DNA from: Chloroflexota bacterium
GTDB taxonomy: Bacteria; Chloroflexota; Limnocylindria; Limnocylindrales; CSP1-4
Assembly (NCBI GenBank): GCA_042408925.1
Contig: JBHOQO010000075.1
Coordinates: forward strand, 1-61,163
Reading direction: 5' to 3'
Length of the DNA stretch: 61,163 bases
This document shows, piece by piece, positions 7,397 through 60,971 of the stretch. A program made the position numbers and the translations under genes. The number at the start of each line of letters is the position of its first letter. The stretch's first letter is position 1. The notes beneath the pieces were generated by a model, which saw nothing but the letters and a program-made list of their open reading frames with translations, did not search any database and was not told the DNA's origin.

Positions 7397-9133
7397 TCAG
7401 CCGAGGGGATGCGCGGCCCGCAGCCGCCCGCCGGTCGTCACCGCGCCCTCCGAGGCCGACGAGACGAGGGCCGCGTACTTGGCGAGGGCGCCGCTCCGAT
7501 AGCGAGGCTCCGGCGGTCGCCAGGCGGCCCGGCGGCGTTCGAGCTCGGCCGGATCGACGAGGAGATCGAGGCGCTTGGCGTCGACGTCGATCTCGATGAG
7601 GTCGCCGTCCTCGACGAGGGCGATCGGGCCGCCGAGGGCGGCCTCCGGGGCGACGTGGCCGATCATGAGGCCGTGGGTCCCGCCCGAGAAGCGGCCGTCG
7701 GTCAGGAGGGCGACCTCGGGCCCCAGGCCCTCGCCGACGAGGGCGGCGGTGACGCTCAGCATCTCCTGCATCCCCGGCCCGCCGACCGGGCCCTCGTAGC
7801 GGATGACGATGACGTCGCCGGGTCGGATCTGCTGATTCTTCACGGCCTCGAAGCAGGCGGGCTCGGAGTCGAAGACCCGGGCCGGGCCGCGGTGGTGGCG
7901 GCGTTCGTGGCCGGCGAGCTTGATGACGCAGCCGTCCGGGGCGAGGCTGCCGCGCAGGATCGCGAGGCCGCCGACCGGCTTGAGCGGTCGTTCGATGGGG
8001 ACGACGACCTCCTGGCCGGGCGTCTCGACGGCGGCGGCGGCGATCTCGGCGATCGTCCGCCCGTCGACCGTCCGGCACGATCCGTGGAGGAGGTTGCGCT
8101 TCAGGAGCTCGCGCATGACGAGGCCGACGCCGCCGGCCTCGTACATGTCCGCCGCCGTGAACCGCCCGCCGGGTTGCATGTCGGCGACGATCGGGGTCCG
8201 GTCGGCGATCCGGCCGAAGTCGTCGAGCTCGAGGGGGACCCCGAATTCGTGGGCGATGGCGAGGAGGTGGAGGACGGCGTTCGTGCTGCCCCCCGTCGCG
8301 GCAACCGAAGCGATGGCGTTCTCGAGGGCCTCGCGGGTCACGATGGAGGACGGCCGGATGTCGTGGCGGACGAGGCTCATCGCGATCTCGCCCGTCCGCC
8401 GGGCGGCCTCGTCTTTCGCCGGGTCCTCGGCCGGGATCCCGTTGAGGCCGGCCGGGCTGAGGCCGAGGAACTCGAGGGCGGTGCTCATCGTGTTCGCGGT
8501 GTACTGGCCGCCGCAGGCGCCGGCCCCGGGGCAGGCGACGTTCTCGATCTCGTAGAGCTCCTCGAGGCTGATCTTGCCGGCCCGGTAGGCACCGACGGCC
8601 TCGAAGACCGTGACGATCGTGGCGTTCCGGCGACCCCGATAGACGCCGGGGTAGATCGTGCCGTTGTAGAGGACGACGCCGGGGACGTCGAGACGGCCGA
8701 GGGCCATCGCCGCGGCCGGGATCGTCTTGTCGCAGCCGACGAGGCAGACGAGGCCGTCGAGGAGGTGACCGCGAACGACGAGCTCGATGCTGTCGGCGAT
8801 GACCTCGCGGCTGACGAGGGACGCCTTCATCCCCTCGGTCCCCATCGAGACGCCGTCGCTGACGGCGATGGTGTTGAACTCCATCGGAGTGCCACCGGCG
8901 GCCCGGATCCCTTCCTTCACGAACTCGGCGAGGCGACGCTGGTTGTAGTTGCAGGGCATCGTCTCGATCCAGCTTGTGGCGACGCCGACGAGGGGCTTCG
9001 AGAGGTCCTCGTCGGTGAAGCCGATCGCCTTGAGCATCGCCCGGGCCGGGGCGCGGTCGGGGCCTTCGGTCAGGGCGACGCTGTGGCGCTTCGCCGGGTC
9101 GGGGGGGCGGTGGTAGGGGTGGGGGTCGGGCAT
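7397..9133 (-). CDS. ilvD: Dihydroxy-acid dehydratase
   Basis: [60 protein letters not shown] 9133. Confidence 0.97.
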
Positions 9134-10041
9134 CGTGGGTCGTCCTCGCGTGGCTGGGCACACTCTGGCGGAGCCGGTCCGGGCCGACTCGGAGGTCGCC
9201 GGCCGACCGCTTCGCGCTGGTCTCGCCTCCAGTCTAGGCCGCGGGACTGTCTTCGGTCACCCGCGATGGTCACGTCGCTCCCTCGTCGGGGAGCCGGGCG
9301 ACGCCGTTGCCCGGCCTGCGCACCGGCCCGGCGTCTGGCAGGCCGCCGTGCGCGCGGGCCCGGGGTCCGCTCGTGTCGTGCCGCTCGAACGAACCAGATC
9401 CCCGCCAACGGTCCTTGCGGTGCGCGGAGCCAGGCCCGAACCGCCCGAGTCCGTGCCGGGAGCGTCGGGCGCAGGACGTCCTCGAAGCGGTCGACCTTGG
9501 CCCGCAGACCGGAGCGGTCCGGGAGGACGACGAGGCGGGCGACGGCGGCCGGTCGCCAGCCCCGCTCGGGCGCCAGGACGGCGACGGCGATCCGCGCCTT
9601 CCGATCGAGGGAACCGAGGAGGTCCTGGAGGTCGACGAGGTCGGACTTCACCTCGACGACGAGGAGCGCCCGAGCCTCGGGATGCCAGGCCACTAGATCG
9701 ATGGCGCCGCGCTCGCCGAAGTGGTTGAAGGTCCACTCGTGGAGGACCTCCCAGCCGAGCGCCCGGAGGATCGCCGTCGCGGCGGCCACGATCTCGGCGT
9801 GGTCGGCATCGAGGAGGCGGTCGAGCTCCGGGCCGCGCCACCGGACTCGAACCTCGAGGGAGGCGCCGAGGGCGCCGAGGACCGCTCGGAGGGCTCGGAT
9901 CGTCGTCGTCTCGAGATCGCCTCGTTCCAGGCGCGAGACTTGCTGCTGGCTCTGCTTCGCTCGCAGCCCGAGCTGGCGCTGGCTCAAGCCGAGCCGGAGT
10001 CGGATGACGCGGATGGTTCTGCCGATGCGGGCGCTGTCCAT
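9070..10041 (-). CDS. XRE-family HTH fused to PD-(D/E)XK-like nuclease domain, with long Arg-rich tail
   Basis: [28 protein letters not shown] (XRE HTH), then GAIDLVAW...LVVEVKS (D...ExK). The tail overlaps the ilvD start by 64 nt. Confidence 0.8.
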
Positions 10042-10200
10042 GGCGCGGAGTGTCGCCGCGGCCCCTCACCGCCCGCGTATCGGGGGTGGATCCCACCTCT
10101 GGCGGCGCACCCTGCCCCGGCTCCCGCCGCGGCCGCCGATCGGCCGCGCTCCCTCTGGATGGACTGCGCTGCAGTCTCATCACGGTCGCTCATCGGCCGC

Positions 10201-56426: not shown

Positions 56427-57158
56427 TCAGCTGAGCGTTCCGCCGGGCTCGAGCTCGTGGACGGTGACGTCGCCGAGGCCGCGGGCGGCGAGCTCGGCTC
56501 GGAGCTCCGTCGGCGTCCCGGCGAGGATCGGGAACGTCCCGTAGTGGATCGGCAGGACGTGCTTTGCTCCGAGGAGCTCGACGGCGAGGGCCGCCTCCCT
56601 GGGCCCCATCGTGTAGTGGCCGCCGATCGGGAGGATCGCCAGCTCCGGGCGGTAGAGCTCGCCGATGAGCCGCATGTCGCCGAAGACGTTCGTGTCGCCG
56701 GCGTGATAGAAGCGAAAGCCGTTCTCGACCTCGACGACGAAGCCGGCCGGTTCGCCGAGGTAGAGGGGGACGTCGGCCTTGGGGTTCCAGTCGCCGGCCG
56801 AATGGTCGGCGCCCGTCATCGTGACCCGGAGCCCGGCCGCTTCGACCGTCCCGCCCTTGTTCATCCCGACGATCCGCTCGGCGGCCTCGGGGACCTGCTT
56901 GGCCGCCCACAGCGAGCACTCGTGGATCGTCGGCCAGGTCGGCCTGAAGCGTCGGGCAAGCTCGAGGGCGTCGCCGAGGTGGTCACCGTGCCCGTGGGTC
57001 ACGAGGAGGACGTCGCAGCGCTCGACGGCCGACGCCGGCTTCGGGCTCTTCGGATTGCCGAACCAGGGGTCGATGAGGACGGTCCGGCCGCCCGGCGTTC
57101 GAACCTCGACGCAGGCGTGGCCGTACCAGGTGAAGGACGTGTCGCGACCGAGACTCAT
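56427..57158 (-). CDS. Metal-dependent hydrolase, MBL fold (UPF0173/UlaG-like)
   Basis: WYGHAC, LIDPW, THGHGDHLGD, ADHS, YHAGDT, PIHYGTF. Confidence 0.92.
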   Translation of the reverse strand: MSLGRDTSFTWYGHACVEVRTPGGRTVLIDPWFGNPKSPKPASAVERCDVLLVTHGHGDHLGDALELARRFRPTWPTIHECSLWAAKQVPEAAERIVGMNKGGTVEAAGLRVTMTGADHSAGDWNPKADVPLYLGEPAGFVVEVENGFRFYHAGDTNVFGDMRLIGELYRPELAILPIGGHYTMGPREAALAVELLGAKHVLPIHYGTFPILAGTPTELRAELAARGLGDVTVHELEPGGTLS

Positions 57159-57222: not shown

Positions 57223-58068
57223 GTGCCGGCCGAGCAGATCGCCTCGAACCTTGCCTTCGTGAACTGGACCGTCCTCGCGAGCCTCGCCGTCGGCTGTCTC
57301 GGGGCCGTCGTCCTCCTTCGCCGCCGGACGAGCGCGACCCGCGGCTACCTCGCCTTCGCCGCCGCCTGCGCCGTCGCCTTCGGCCTCCTCGCCTGGCTCG
57401 CCGACGGTGCCCTCCCGCCGACGATCGTCGGCTCGCCGGTCGTCGTCGACCCGGCCTGGGATGGGCCTCGGCGGGCCGGGCTCCTCGTCTTCGTCGTCCT
57501 CGCGGCGGCCGTCGTCGTCGCCGTCGTCCGGGGCTCGGCCCTCGGGGTCCTCGGACCCCTCGCGGTCGCCGCCGGCGCGGCCGTCCTCGGTGCAGCAGCC
57601 CTCGGCTGGGGCGGGTCGGCGCTCGGGCGGTTCCTCCTCGTCGTCGAGCTCGGGCTCCTCGCCGCGGCGACCGGCGGCGTCTTCGCGGCGATGGTCCTCG
57701 CCCACTGGTACCTGGTGACCCCGAAGCTCCCGGAAGGCCCGCTCGTCCTCCTCGCCCGGGGACTCGTCGGCGTCGTCGGGGCCCAGCTCGCCCTCTTCGG
57801 GATCGCGGCGGCCGTCGGGCTCGGCGCCCCGGGGAGCGGCGTCGGGCCGCTGTTCGGGGTCCTCGGCGGCCCGTGGGCCTTCTTCGTCTGGCTGCGGCTC
57901 GCCGTCGGCCTCGTCTTCTCCTTCGTCCTCGTCTGGGCGGCCTGGCAGACGGCTCGGACGCGGTCGATGGAATCGGCGACCGGCCTCCTCTACATCGGCG
58001 TCGGAACGATCGCCGCGGGTACGATCCTGGCAGCCGGCTGCTACTTCGGCGGCGGGCTGATCCTGTGA
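57223..58068 (+). CDS. Conserved multi-pass membrane protein of unknown function
   Basis: About 8 hydrophobic segments; AMVLAHWYLVTPKL and SMESATGLLY motifs. GTG 57223 lies 8 nt after TACACT. Confidence 0.75.
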   Translation: MPAEQIASNLAFVNWTVLASLAVGCLGAVVLLRRRTSATRGYLAFAAACAVAFGLLAWLADGALPPTIVGSPVVVDPAWDGPRRAGLLVFVVLAAAVVVAVVRGSALGVLGPLAVAAGAAVLGAAALGWGGSALGRFLLVVELGLLAAATGGVFAAMVLAHWYLVTPKLPEGPLVLLARGLVGVVGAQLALFGIAAAVGLGAPGSGVGPLFGVLGGPWAFFVWLRLAVGLVFSFVLVWAAWQTARTRSMESATGLLYIGVGTIAAGTILAAGCYFGGGLIL

Positions 58069-58123: not shown

Positions 58124-58957
58124 ATGACGGCGATGCGGATCCGGGTCCGCCTCTTCGCGATCCAGCGCGAGCAGGCGGGGACGCGCTCGGTCGAACTCGA
58201 GCTCGACCCCGGGGCCACGATCGAGGACGCCTGGGCGGCCCTCGTCGAGCGGTTCCCGATCCTGGCTCCCGGCCGCCCGAGCGTTCGCTTCGCCCGCAAC
58301 GGCGCCTACGCCGGACCCGGCGACGTCCTCGCCGACGGCGACGAGCTGGCGGTCATCCCGCCGGTGAGCGGCGGCTCCGAGGAGGGCGGCTCCGAGGAGG
58401 GCGGCTCCGAGGGAGGCGGGCCGGATGGGGCGCGACCCGATCGCCGGCGCATCCTTCGCCTCCAGGCCGAACCGTTCGCGCCCGACCTCCTCGCGCAGCT
58501 GAGCGCCCGCCTCGCGACCGAGGCCGACGGGGCGGTCGTCGCCTTTCTCGGGCGGACGCGGGTCAGTCCCGGTACCCCGGCCCCGGGCCAGGAGGCCGAG
58601 GCGGCCCGTCACGCCGGGCGCCGGGTCGAGGGCCTCGAGTACGAGGCGCTCGAGCCGATGGCCCTCGCGGTCCTCGAGACCATCGCCGATGAGATCGCCG
58701 AGCGGTTCGGCGTCGAGCGGCTCGCGGTCGTCCATCGACTCGGCCCCGTCCCCCTCGGCGAACCGTCGATTGCGGTCGTGGCCGTCGCCCCCCACCGCGA
58801 CGCGGCGTTCGCCGCGGCCCGCTACGCCATCGACGAGACCAAGGCCCGCGCGCCGATCTGGAAGGCCGAGCACTTCGCCGACGGCCACGTCTGGATCGGC
58901 GAGCCAGCCCGACCCGGGCCGGCGGAGGGATCCGCCGAGGCGAGCGGGGAGCCGTGA
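58124..58957 (+). CDS. moaE: MoaD-MoaE fusion (molybdopterin synthase, MoaX-like)
   Basis: IRVRLFA...DELAVIPPVSGG (MoaD), linker, then GAVVAFLGRTR, LEYEA, VHRLG, HRDAAF, TKARAPIWKAE (MoaE). Confidence 0.92.
   Translation: MTAMRIRVRLFAIQREQAGTRSVELELDPGATIEDAWAALVERFPILAPGRPSVRFARNGAYAGPGDVLADGDELAVIPPVSGGSEEGGSEEGGSEGGGPDGARPDRRRILRLQAEPFAPDLLAQLSARLATEADGAVVAFLGRTRVSPGTPAPGQEAEAARHAGRRVEGLEYEALEPMALAVLETIADEIAERFGVERLAVVHRLGPVPLGEPSIAVVAVAPHRDAAFAAARYAIDETKARAPIWKAEHFADGHVWIGEPARPGPAEGSAEASGEP
58370..58414 (+). repeat. 15-nt tandem repeat x3 encoding the GGSEE linker
   Basis: GGCGGCTCCGAGGAG at 58370 and 58385, GGCGGCTCCGAGGGA at 58400. The first unit begins at the MoaD Gly-Gly. Confidence 0.9.
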
Positions 58958-60666
58958 GCCGAAGCGCCCGAGCCCTCGACCGCTTGGCGACCCTCGCCGA
59001 CGACCTCGCGGCGGCGTGGGCGCCCCGGGGTCGAGGCCGGGCCAGCGCCGGCACCGAGCGGGCCCTCCTCCGGCTCTTCGGGGTCGAGGGGCTCGACGGG
59101 GCGGGCAAACCCCTCGCCTGGTCGGTCGTCGAGCGCTATGCCGGACGGGATCCGGGGCGGCTTGGCCACGGGATCACGCTCCCGTTCGCCATCGCGCTCC
59201 TCGAGTACGACGTCGACCCGCAGCAGCTCGCCCTCGACGTGGCGGCGGGCGTCGTCGACCTCGCCTTCGAGGCAAACCTCCTCGCCGAGCCCGACCGCCG
59301 GGCGACGGCGGAGGCCGAGGCGGCCCGGCTCCTCGACGCCGCGATCGAGCGGATCGACGCGAACCGGACGGCCCGGACCGAGCTCCGCTCGCTCCTCGGG
59401 GACGCGGAACCGCCGCGGCTCGGCGTGCTCCTCGACGTCGGGACGGCCGCCGAGGCGCGCCGGGCCGGGGCGTCCGTGGTCCGGGCGGGGGCCGACGTCG
59501 TCCTCGTCGAGACGCCCTCGGGGCGAGAGCTCGTCGAGCGCCTCAGCGTCGCCGGTCTCGAGGTCGTCCGTTGGCAGCCGCCCGAGCCCGCGGTCCGCGC
59601 CGGCGGCGGTCGGCCACTCGAGGCGGGTCGGGAGGCCGTCGACGCCGAGCCGCCGGCCCCGCCGGGGAGCCAGCGCGGCCTCGCCGCCCTCCGGCGGACC
59701 CTCGACGAGGTGGCCGCGGAGCGCGCCGCCTACGTCCGGATCGCGACCTCGGCGCCGGCCTTCGGCGCTCCGGAACAGGCCGTCGTCGCGGCCCTCGAGC
59801 GGGTCGACCTCGTCGTCGCCGATCCGTTCCGGGAGATCGTCGACGACGGCGTCGACCCGGACCGAGCGCTCGCCGACCACGCCTTCGCCCAGCGGCTCGT
59901 CCGCCGGAGCGGGGCGACGCTCGTCGTCGGTCCCGGGCCGCTCGTCATCGGTCCGGATCTGGCGGCGGGGCGCCCCTCCGACGCGGCGGGCCTCGTCGGT
60001 CGGGCGGTGGCGCTCCTCGCCGTGTCCGTCGGCCTGGCGCGGCGGGCGGGGTTGGCGCCGACCGACGTCGTCGTCGACGCCGTGCCGAGCTGGCTCAGCG
60101 AGGAGCCGGACGCGGTCCAGCTCAGCCTCGCGACGGTCGCGGTCGAACGGGCGCTCTTCCCCGGTCATGCGTTCGCCTTCCGCCGGCCTCGGGTCGGGGC
60201 CGGACCGTTCTCGCCGGCCGCCTGGCCGGCGCTCGTGGCGGGCCTCCTGCCCGTCGCCGGGCCGGTCGACGTCGTCCTCGGACCCGAGGCGGATCCCGAG
60301 GCGATCGGTCGGACGGTGGCCGGGCTGCGGGCGGCGGCCGCCGTCGCCGACGGCCTGCCGCGGATCGAGGCGCCGACGCTCCGGGGCGCCGGTGCGGAGC
60401 TCGTCGAGCGGGTGCTCGAGGTCGGGGCGGCGTATCTCGCCGAGCTTCGGGAGGGCGGACCGGCGGCCATCCAGGAGGGGCTCGCCCGGGTCGGGGGAAA
60501 CGGACGCCGTCCGGGCGGCGGAGCGCTCGTCGGGGCGGTGCTCGGGTCGGCGGGCGGGGCAGGTGGCCTCGGAGGCGGCGGGGGCGGCCGACCGGCCGGG
60601 TTTGGGGGCGAGGCGGTCGTCGAGCGGGGCGGTGCCTTCGATCCCCTCGCCGCCTTCGAGGTCTGA
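58954..60666 (+). CDS. Degenerate homolog of lysine 5,6-aminomutase alpha subunit (KamD-like)
   Basis: ERALLRLFGVEGLD...PL..SVVE, LRRTLDEVAAERAAYVRI, AALERVDLVVAD, GVDPDRALADHAF, C-terminal VVERGGAFDPL. All are collinear with KamD as recalled from memory; no beta subunit is adjacent. Confidence 0.7.
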   Translation: MSRSARALDRLATLADDLAAAWAPRGRGRASAGTERALLRLFGVEGLDGAGKPLAWSVVERYAGRDPGRLGHGITLPFAIALLEYDVDPQQLALDVAAGVVDLAFEANLLAEPDRRATAEAEAARLLDAAIERIDANRTARTELRSLLGDAEPPRLGVLLDVGTAAEARRAGASVVRAGADVVLVETPSGRELVERLSVAGLEVVRWQPPEPAVRAGGGRPLEAGREAVDAEPPAPPGSQRGLAALRRTLDEVAAERAAYVRIATSAPAFGAPEQAVVAALERVDLVVADPFREIVDDGVDPDRALADHAFAQRLVRRSGATLVVGPGPLVIGPDLAAGRPSDAAGLVGRAVALLAVSVGLARRAGLAPTDVVVDAVPSWLSEEPDAVQLSLATVAVERALFPGHAFAFRRPRVGAGPFSPAAWPALVAGLLPVAGPVDVVLGPEADPEAIGRTVAGLRAAAAVADGLPRIEAPTLRGAGAELVERVLEVGAAYLAELREGGPAAIQEGLARVGGNGRRPGGGALVGAVLGSAGGAGGLGGGGGGRPAGFGGEAVVERGGAFDPLAAFEV

Positions 60667-60704: not shown

Positions 60705-60971
60705 CTACGACTCCCGGAAGACGAGGTCGTGCTCGCGGACGTGGTCGGCGACCTTGATGGCGACGTCGTCGCCCGGGTTCGCGCGATCGACGCGCCGGTG
60801 CTCGATCTCCATCGACTCGACGGTCTGGACGAGGTCGGTCGTGTGGCCGCGGATGTGGATCCGGTCCCCGACGGCGAGGGGAGCCCGGAGGCTCAGGGCG
60901 GCGACGGAGAGGTGGCTGAAGTAGTGGGTGACGGTGCCGACGGCATCGGCAGGGTCGTGGGTCTCGGACAT
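60705..60971 (-). CDS. Small beta-barrel protein (EF-Tu domain II / U32 C-terminal-like)
   Basis: VGTVTHYF, LAVGDRIHIRGHTTD..QTVESMEIE, GDDVAIKV...VREHDLVF. RBS GAGGAGG. Confidence 0.8.
   Translation of the reverse strand: MSETHDPADAVGTVTHYFSHLSVAALSLRAPLAVGDRIHIRGHTTDLVQTVESMEIEHRRVDRANPGDDVAIKVADHVREHDLVFRES

Follow-up and report, generated by a model that had tools for sequence, protein, structure and literature searches.

What is the barrel subunit of a coenzyme B12-dependent aminomutase doing at the end of a molybdopterin synthase operon, in a genome where its partner subunit is not to be found? The question is raised by 61,163 nucleotides from a bacterium of the Chloroflexota (Limnocylindria; Limnocylindrales; CSP1-4), namely positions 1 to 61,163 of contig JBHOQO010000075.1 in assembly GCA_042408925.1; this whole stretch is what we call the window. 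Its forward strand carries, at positions 58954-60666, an open reading frame (ORF) with a GTG start that encodes 570 amino acids and resembles KamD, the alpha subunit of lysine 5,6-aminomutase; we refer to its product as KamDL, our own term for this KamD-like protein. Enzymes that combine B12 with pyridoxal 5'-phosphate (PLP), as the aminomutases do, are among the most cofactor-demanding known, and in KamDL the barrel subunit alone has been retained over long evolution with its cofactor site rewritten, which makes it a case of subunit repurposing. On the whole we lean towards the view that KamDL is a lineage-specific, neofunctionalised descendant of KamD, whose accessory function, be it binding, modulation or some simple new catalysis, is tied to the MoaDE operon in which it lies.

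The KamD fold and its cofactor site

KamDL is a true, full-length homolog of the lysine 5,6-aminomutase alpha subunit, which is how an earlier note, made from the letters of this DNA, had read it, and Pfam, hhalign and Foldseek concur. Indeed, Pfam family PF09043 recognises KamDL with 97.6 bits (E 7.7e-28; the gathering threshold is 25 bits), and a profile of its 58-member family matched, among solved structures, only 1xrs_A, 9q1a_C and 8t0v_A (E about 1e-35), residues 12-504 of 516 being aligned in the comparison with 1xrs_A. Against 25 canonical KamDs, hhalign gave a probability of 99.5% to an end-to-end alignment of 486 columns, in which 21% of residues are identical. The AlphaFold2 (AF2) model has a predicted local distance difference test (pLDDT) score of 89 and a predicted template modelling (pTM) score of 0.90, with only the linker at residues 200-238 and residues 520-545 poorly ordered; its best Foldseek matches are 1XRS, 8T0V and 9Q1A at target-normalised template modelling (TM) scores of 0.72-0.79, followed by tiers of ornithine aminomutase (E 2e-8) and glutamate mutase (E 1e-4) at TM scores of 0.33-0.46. 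By AF2, Foldseek and hhalign, then, the fold of KamD, a TIM barrel with an accessory clamp, is present at full length: on the forward strand the gene encodes an N-terminal helical clamp (approximately residues 1-150), an eight-stranded barrel (approximately 151-445) and C-terminal helices with a tail. The window is about 76% G+C, and a codon-position GC of 0.87/0.57/0.91 identifies 58954-60666 as the coding frame; by the same measure a 725-amino-acid ORF on the minus strand and other long ORFs in the other strand and frames were dismissed as shadows.

The likeness to KamD, the nearest protein known (PF09043; 1XRS, 8T0V, 9Q1A), goes beyond this shared arrangement of N- and C-terminal clamp and barrel. 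Framework motifs run through both proteins (ER..(C/L)RL.G..G.D..G.PL, RI..NR..R, Y.RL and PE.A...A.ER.D), as do R...D..F, FP..PL and the C-terminal G..(G/A)V.E....(F/Y).P(F/L), yet identity is merely 18-21%; the segments YVPYGATTEGFGGTFATQENF and GMLTEAIHTPF, invariant in KamD, are missing or variable in KamDL, which has instead an eight-residue insertion after beta5 and, unlike KamD, no adjacent KamE, reactivase or lysine-fermentation genes. More distantly, ornithine 4,5-aminomutase OraE (3KP0/3KP1) and glutamate mutase GlmE (1CB7) are fellow members of the B12-mutase TIM-barrel superfamily; in OraE a B12 domain is part of the same chain, whereas KamDL has neither such a domain nor a partner. 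A profile search of 1.84 billion representatives gave 619 matches at E <= 1e-3, the best 150 of which are the KamDL family or fragments thereof, and the canonical KamD tail was not seen among the matches listed.

It is the cofactor site that sets the two proteins apart. In KamD, PLP is contacted by Ser238 (pyridine nitrogen), Tyr263 (stacking), Asn299 (O3') and Tyr236, its phosphate is held by Arg184, Arg268 and Ser189, and Glu341 probably stabilises the deoxyadenosyl moiety (PMC3958899). Residues were mapped onto KamDL by phmmer, by a profile hidden Markov model, by MAFFT with eight canonical sequences and by hhalign, all four being concordant, and on this alignment the PLP site is gone, as the earlier note had suspected, with none of the seven contacting side chains kept. 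All seven, together with Asp298, Glu341 and Lys370, the last of which we take to act at the substrate site, are invariant in the 25 canonical KamDs.

The replacements fall in three stretches of the forward strand. At 59497-59532 (residues 182-193), beta2 and its following loop, VVLVETPSGREL, correspond to the PLP-phosphate loop R184-T-T-G-Q-S189 of KamD; here Arg184 has become Thr187 (Val in the family consensus) and Ser189 has become Glu192, which is invariant in KamDL proteins, as is Pro188 in the same loop. In the beta3 and beta4 loops (59737-59847, residues 262-298), replacements were again read from alignment: Tyr236 is Ser266, Ser238 an invariant Pro268, Gly264 an invariant Glu294 and Arg268 is Asp298. 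The NDALY segment of KamD aligns in this region, in all four alignments, with A289-D-P-F-R293, so that the ADPF reading of the earlier note holds, and the position of the stacking Tyr263 is taken by a variable Arg293, with Phe292 one position before it. The beta5 loop, GPGPLVIGPDLAAGRPS (59929-59979, residues 326-342), stands in place of the KamD GEDNY motif: Asp298 and Asn299 are replaced by Gly328 and Pro329, both invariant, and the eight-residue insertion, PDLaxGxPSD, is specific to the family and includes the invariant Asp335, Gly339 and Pro341. Further along the barrel, Glu341 corresponds to a variable Ser379 and Lys370 to Ala408.

Can such a protein still be an aminomutase? NCBIfam equivalog NF052384, which describes functional KamD, scores KamDL at 96 bits, far below its cutoff of 600 bits, and KamDL, which belongs to PF09043 at the level of the domain, departs from KamD in its equivalog score, in its PLP ligands, in its radical and substrate residues, in its partner and in its pathway context. 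KamDL, to judge from its sequence, is not an aminomutase.

Selection, partner and distribution

Loss of an active site naturally raises the suspicion of decay, and the earlier note had indeed called the gene degenerate. That description was not borne out. For close pairs in which synonymous divergence (dS) is unsaturated (0.17-0.45), the ratio of nonsynonymous to synonymous substitution rates (dN/dS) is 0.02-0.08; the window gene set against its 68%-identical relatives gives about 0.34, a comparison in which dS is saturated. The 58-sequence alignment contains 64 invariant columns, among them residues that replace PLP ligands. KamDL is not decaying and is under strong purifying selection, and because of this selection, and because the replacement residues E192, P268, E294, G328 and P329 are themselves invariant, the site is better described as remodelled than as decayed. 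That it might be a relic, an annotation artefact or the pseudogene of a horizontally acquired kamD could be argued from its distance from KamD, the disappearance of its active site, a low-complexity insertion and the repeated, independent loss of the gene; yet the reading frame is intact in 78 genomes and at no fewer than 184 species-level loci, and the low dN/dS, the invariant columns, the pTM of the model and the coding-type codon-position GC all speak against it. In our view this idea is refuted by the selection and conservation data and is hardly credible at all. With cofactor residues lost, the fold kept and purifying selection in force, KamDL has what defines a pseudoenzyme or neofunctionalised homolog.

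The distribution of conservation along the chain is also informative. The most conserved part is the clamp formed by the N-terminal 150 residues, with a score of 0.76; the barrel loops after beta2 to beta5 score 0.73-0.88 and that after beta6 0.69, and the loops after beta1, beta7 and beta8 only 0.28-0.46. This variable side of the barrel mouth (the beta7, beta8 and beta1 loops) is the side on which KamD has its invariant K370 and TEAIHTPF. The half of the mouth that once held PLP thus appears to have been rewritten and then frozen, and the other half to have been freed from constraint; the conserved beta2-beta6 loops may leave room for a new catalytic or ligand site. Towards the C-terminus, the Gly-rich insertion that the earlier note had pointed out (60490-60588, forward strand, approximately residues 513-545) is real, but amounts merely to a disordered loop: it is of variable length, low in complexity and predicted to be disordered, with pLDDT below 50 at residues 520-545, and is confined to the clade closest to the window gene. 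In five relatives (G154, G190, G073, G166 and G309), a six-frame match to the KamDL C-terminus crosses an in-frame TGA, probably because the alignment overran the genuine stop codon or because of a frameshift close to the variable loop at the C-terminus.

What of the partner that a KamD requires? The genome is a metagenome-assembled genome (MAG) of 2.8 Mb in 156 contigs, 92% complete, and KamDL is its sole PF09043 gene. The earlier note had seen no kamE nearby, and in this MAG none was found elsewhere either: there is no match to the OAM_dimer domain (PF16554), and tblastn with Clostridium KamE reached a best E of only 0.97. KamE is likewise absent from 82 related loci, and no kamA, kdd, kce, kal or reactivase lies near KamDL in the window or in the related loci examined. 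A Clostridium locus (L124), used as a positive control, displayed, one after another, kamA, an ORF, the gene for a MutS-like reactivase, kamD and kamE.

One might nevertheless imagine that KamDL is still an adenosylcobalamin (AdoCbl) enzyme, which borrows a 149-amino-acid small subunit of the methylmalonyl-CoA mutase (MCM) type, encoded beside MeaB, for a PLP-independent radical rearrangement. The genome certainly uses AdoCbl, and this small subunit, which is the one good B12-binding domain (PF02310) of the genome and adjoins MeaB, is probably shared already between two MCM-type large subunits; moreover, no part of KamDL is better conserved than its clamp regions, and the work behind 1XRS is said to have placed those of KamD in contact with the Rossmann domain and the adenosyl ligand. 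However, Glu341, the proposed stabiliser of the deoxyadenosyl group, is not conserved, the beta7 and beta8 loops that are invariant in KamD are the least conserved in KamDL, no B12-binding gene accompanies KamDL in any of the 82 loci, no reactivase adjoins it, and nothing in the genome corresponds to the dimerisation domain of KamE. The loss of Glu341 and of the beta7/beta8 loops makes residual B12 chemistry unlikely, and we consider this borrowing very improbable.

Two side observations belong here. The MCM-type genes of this genome lie at C156:5092-6654, C156:16985-18469 and C19:25698-27245, all on the minus strand; two encode large subunits, and a single free-standing B12-binding small subunit was detected, in the MeaB operon, which suggests that the two large subunits share it or that a second gene is missing from the MAG. 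There is also a homolog of lysine 2,3-aminomutase, KamA, at C29:43739-44965 (8569-10191 in locus L125), which is 57% identical to the Clostridium enzyme, occurs at 75-92% identity in nearly all genomes of the order, including reduced ones of 1.1 Mb, and adjoins a sulfite-oxidase-type molybdoenzyme, a rhodanese, FdhD and an oxidoreductase of the bis-molybdopterin guanine dinucleotide (bis-MGD) type, with no further lysine-fermentation genes seen near it. Covariation of KamDL with KamA was considered and rejected: nearly every member of the order has KamA, KamDL-minus genera and a sister family of 1.1-Mb genomes included, and because it is present regardless of KamDL it provides no functional link.

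How widespread is KamDL? More than 748 homologs of about 530 amino acids are known to us from these searches. With each species represented by a single genome, no fewer than 184 loci came to light; we kept 79 of them, whose labels read Limnocylindria, Chloroflexota or Chloroflexia, with a handful of odd exceptions among the bins. The class was sampled with 301 genomes, 78 of which carry KamDL, all of them within the window's own family (about 92 sampled), and no other family sampled in the class has it. Within that family it is absent from all sampled genomes of genera g16 and g37 and from part of g25, assemblies of 3-10 contigs included, and these KamDL-minus genomes retain MoaE. In the six that were inspected, the operon described below (membrane protein, an optional methyltransferase, fused MoaDE, an optional M55 peptidase) is intact and simply ends without KamDL. 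Since three lineages lost KamDL and kept the operon, KamDL is accessory and not required for synthesis of the molybdenum cofactor (Moco).

Public labels for the family are 'lysine 5,6-aminomutase subunit alpha' or 'hypothetical protein', and our literature search found no paper linking Limnocylindria to an aminomutase. The Limnocylindria are an abundant uncultured group of soil and freshwater, and the first of these labels would mislead metabolic reconstructions of them, wrongly implying that they ferment lysine and rely on B12/PLP chemistry. The locus itself was found in DNA metagenomes only, from hot spring, subsurface and freshwater, and no RNA runs with it were found.

The operon around KamDL

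The gene directly upstream of KamDL, at 58124-58957 on the forward strand, encodes a MoaD-MoaE fusion of 277 amino acids (ThiS 59.5 bits, MoaE 102 bits), in which the MoaD part ends in PPVSGG at residue 84 and is followed by the Gly/Glu-rich linker SEEGGSEEGGSEGGG. It is the only MoaE in the genome, which also has MoaC, FdhD, a sulfite-oxidase-type enzyme and a bis-MGD-type enzyme, and because of this it is best regarded as the housekeeping molybdopterin synthase. In Mycobacterium tuberculosis, MoaD and MoaE are likewise joined, as MoaX, which is active only once cleaved after Gly-Gly, and the neighbour of KamDL resembles it in its internal PPVSGG and linker. No dedicated protease for the fusion is evident. 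We considered KamDL itself as a protease or processing factor for MoaD-MoaE and rejected the idea that it is essential in that capacity: the fusion persists throughout the family, and KamDL-minus genomes keep it too.

The GTG of KamDL shares three bases with the TGA stop of the MoaD-MoaE gene (58954-58957, forward strand, ...GAGCC-GTGA-GC), as the earlier note had observed, and a Shine-Dalgarno-like GGGGAG lies a few bases 5' of it. The same start/stop overlap is present in a related locus, L009, and the arrangement is a signature of translational coupling between the two genes, as predicted from their sequence. Synteny, examined by targeted tblastn over the 82 related loci, shows that the operon with a membrane protein and MoaD-MoaE, proposed at the outset, is widely conserved. 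Its order is a metallo-beta-lactamase (MBL) gene on the minus strand, then on the forward strand the membrane protein, an optional O-methyltransferase (58/82 loci), MoaD-MoaE, an optional M55 D-aminopeptidase (49/82), an optional S58 DmpA-type peptidase (12/82) and KamDL, followed in most loci by minus-strand genes for a SAMP-like ThiS protein and a BNR protein. MoaDE lies upstream of KamDL on the same strand in 75 loci, the other seven having no more than about 1.4 kb of upstream DNA, and KamDL is the last gene of the operon wherever enough upstream DNA is available. In the window's clade only the minimal set is present, namely membrane protein, MoaDE and KamDL. In 78 loci the spacing to the upstream gene is a 4-bp overlap in 22, another overlap in 16, a gap of at most 30 bp in 15 and a larger one in 25, and the 4-bp overlap recurs whichever gene precedes KamDL.

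Does this constancy reflect shared function, or only shared ancestry? It can be argued that the link between MoaDE and KamDL is inherited gene order, the function of KamDL lying elsewhere, for example in regulation or structure: KamDL has been lost at least three times with no loss of MoaDE, gaps above 30 bp occur in about a third of loci, and the wider neighbourhood (MBL hydrolase, Macro, 4HBT and GGDEF-EAL genes) is partly syntenic too, pointing to slow rearrangement in the family. Against this, the same-strand position downstream of MoaDE is kept in all 75 informative loci at 45-55% protein identity and despite insertions and deletions of genes between MoaDE and KamDL, and the 4-bp overlap recurs with varying upstream genes. 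We therefore regard inherited order as an unlikely explanation.

The optional peptidases suggest another answer, in which MoaDE is a mere neighbour and KamDL a new enzyme that metabolises D- or beta-amino acids or peptides, acting on M55 or S58 products, the barrel mouth serving as a metal or acid/base site for substrates bearing amino groups. M55 is a DppA-type D-aminopeptidase and S58 a DmpA-type beta/L-aminopeptidase; one or the other lies directly before KamDL in 49 and 12 of the 82 loci, respectively, often with stop and start overlapping, the ancestral substrates of KamD are D-lysine and beta-lysine, and conserved acidic residues would suit amines. However, in the window's clade and at least 20 other loci KamDL directly follows MoaDE with no peptidase, the constant neighbour is MoaDE and the peptidases are optional, KamDL-minus genera (L119, L122) keep M55, and half of the barrel-mouth loops are unconserved, with no recognisable catalytic motif. 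On this balance we find such an enzyme fairly unlikely.

What KamDL might do

We return to the reading that we prefer, of KamDL as a neofunctionalised KamD descendant serving the MoaDE operon. Such a protein would work without PLP or B12, through the conserved N-terminal clamp and the beta2-beta6 loops of the former PLP half of the barrel mouth. This region now bears E192, D290, E294, D335, E384 and W380, together with Pro and Gly, in place of the phosphate-binding Arg and Ser; the result may be called a putative acidic pocket, as far as primary sequence and secondary structure let us read it. The replacement of phosphate-binding Arg and Ser by invariant Glu and Asp argues against a phosphate cofactor, and the remodelled site might better suit a cationic ligand, a metal, an amine or an inserted peptide tail. 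KamDL could accordingly be pictured as a binding or modulating protein, or as an acid/base or metal enzyme, co-expressed with molybdopterin synthase and serving the pathway of the operon outside the core Moco route. The earlier note had put forward a scaffold, a ligand sensor or a novel activity, and the data favour none of these over the others. A fixed place after the sole molybdopterin synthase provides, in any case, a testable handle on function, and the practical impact is modest meanwhile.

Several points weigh against this reading. The specific ligand or partner is a proposal drawn from residues; operon membership could be inherited gene order and not shared function, and in about 25 of 78 loci more than 30 bp separate KamDL from the gene before it, although some of these gaps may hold genes missed by our queries. 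KamDL has no obligatory link to Moco, as its loss in three lineages that kept MoaDE shows. Pro and Gly make up a large share of the newly invariant residues and may be structural rather than ligand-binding, and, the genome being 92% complete, the absence of a KamE partner is not absolute.

A more specific version can also be entertained. In KamD, the lysine-PLP arm of KamE enters the barrel mouth, and it is conceivable that the remodelled, acidic mouth of KamDL and its clamp now receive the tail of an operon partner or a small molecule, with KamDL as a carrier, chaperone or modifier that couples molybdopterin synthase to an NrfD-like membrane protein. Candidates would be the Gly-Gly C-terminus of MoaD or of the SAMP-like ThiS protein, or a pterin intermediate. 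KamDL would then belong to sulfur-carrier and Moco biology as a component that had so far escaped notice. We hold this coupling to be decidedly doubtful.

The membrane protein in question is the first gene of the operon (57223-58068, forward strand; 281 amino acids, eight helices), with the motifs GHWYLVTPKL and TARTRSMESATGLLYI. It matched no Pfam or NCBIfam family, it has at least 3355 homologs (the named ones among 120 listed being 'hypothetical protein'), and it is better conserved than KamDL. Its AF2 model (pLDDT 92.6) retrieved ActC/ActF of Alternative Complex III and the polysulfide reductase PsrC in Foldseek (E 7e-4 to 0.045, TM 0.5-0.6), and the modelled fold seems closest to quinone-site subunits of the NrfD/PsrC type, the resemblance being weak. 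Such subunits are membrane anchors of molybdoenzyme complexes, which is worth bearing in mind beside a molybdopterin synthase.

Fusions of MoaE with KamDL and of M55 with KamDL (P0261, P0170 and others) also turned up. They contain partial domains only and were not used as evidence; because the low-scoring 'full-length' matches hold Arg-rich wrong-frame stretches, they are probably artefacts of frameshift or gene calling.

The surroundings of the operon vary. Upstream, the divergent MBL-fold hydrolase of PRK00685 type (56427-57158, minus strand) is syntenic in 65/82 loci. Downstream, a free-standing SAMP1/MoaD-like protein of 89 amino acids with a free C-terminus ...VSGGGG is encoded convergently with KamDL (L004 9593-9862, minus strand; equivalents in 52/82 loci), followed by a BNR/Sortilin-type beta-propeller protein (L004 9865-10947, minus strand; equivalents in 51/82). 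The window lacks this pair after KamDL, where its contig soon comes to an end. An 88-amino-acid ORF of the window, convergent with KamDL (60705-60971, minus strand) and syntenic in only 3/82 related loci, gives weak, sub-cutoff matches to the C-terminal beta-barrel of Peptidase_U32 (E 1e-4) and to domain 2 of EF-Tu (E 2e-3).

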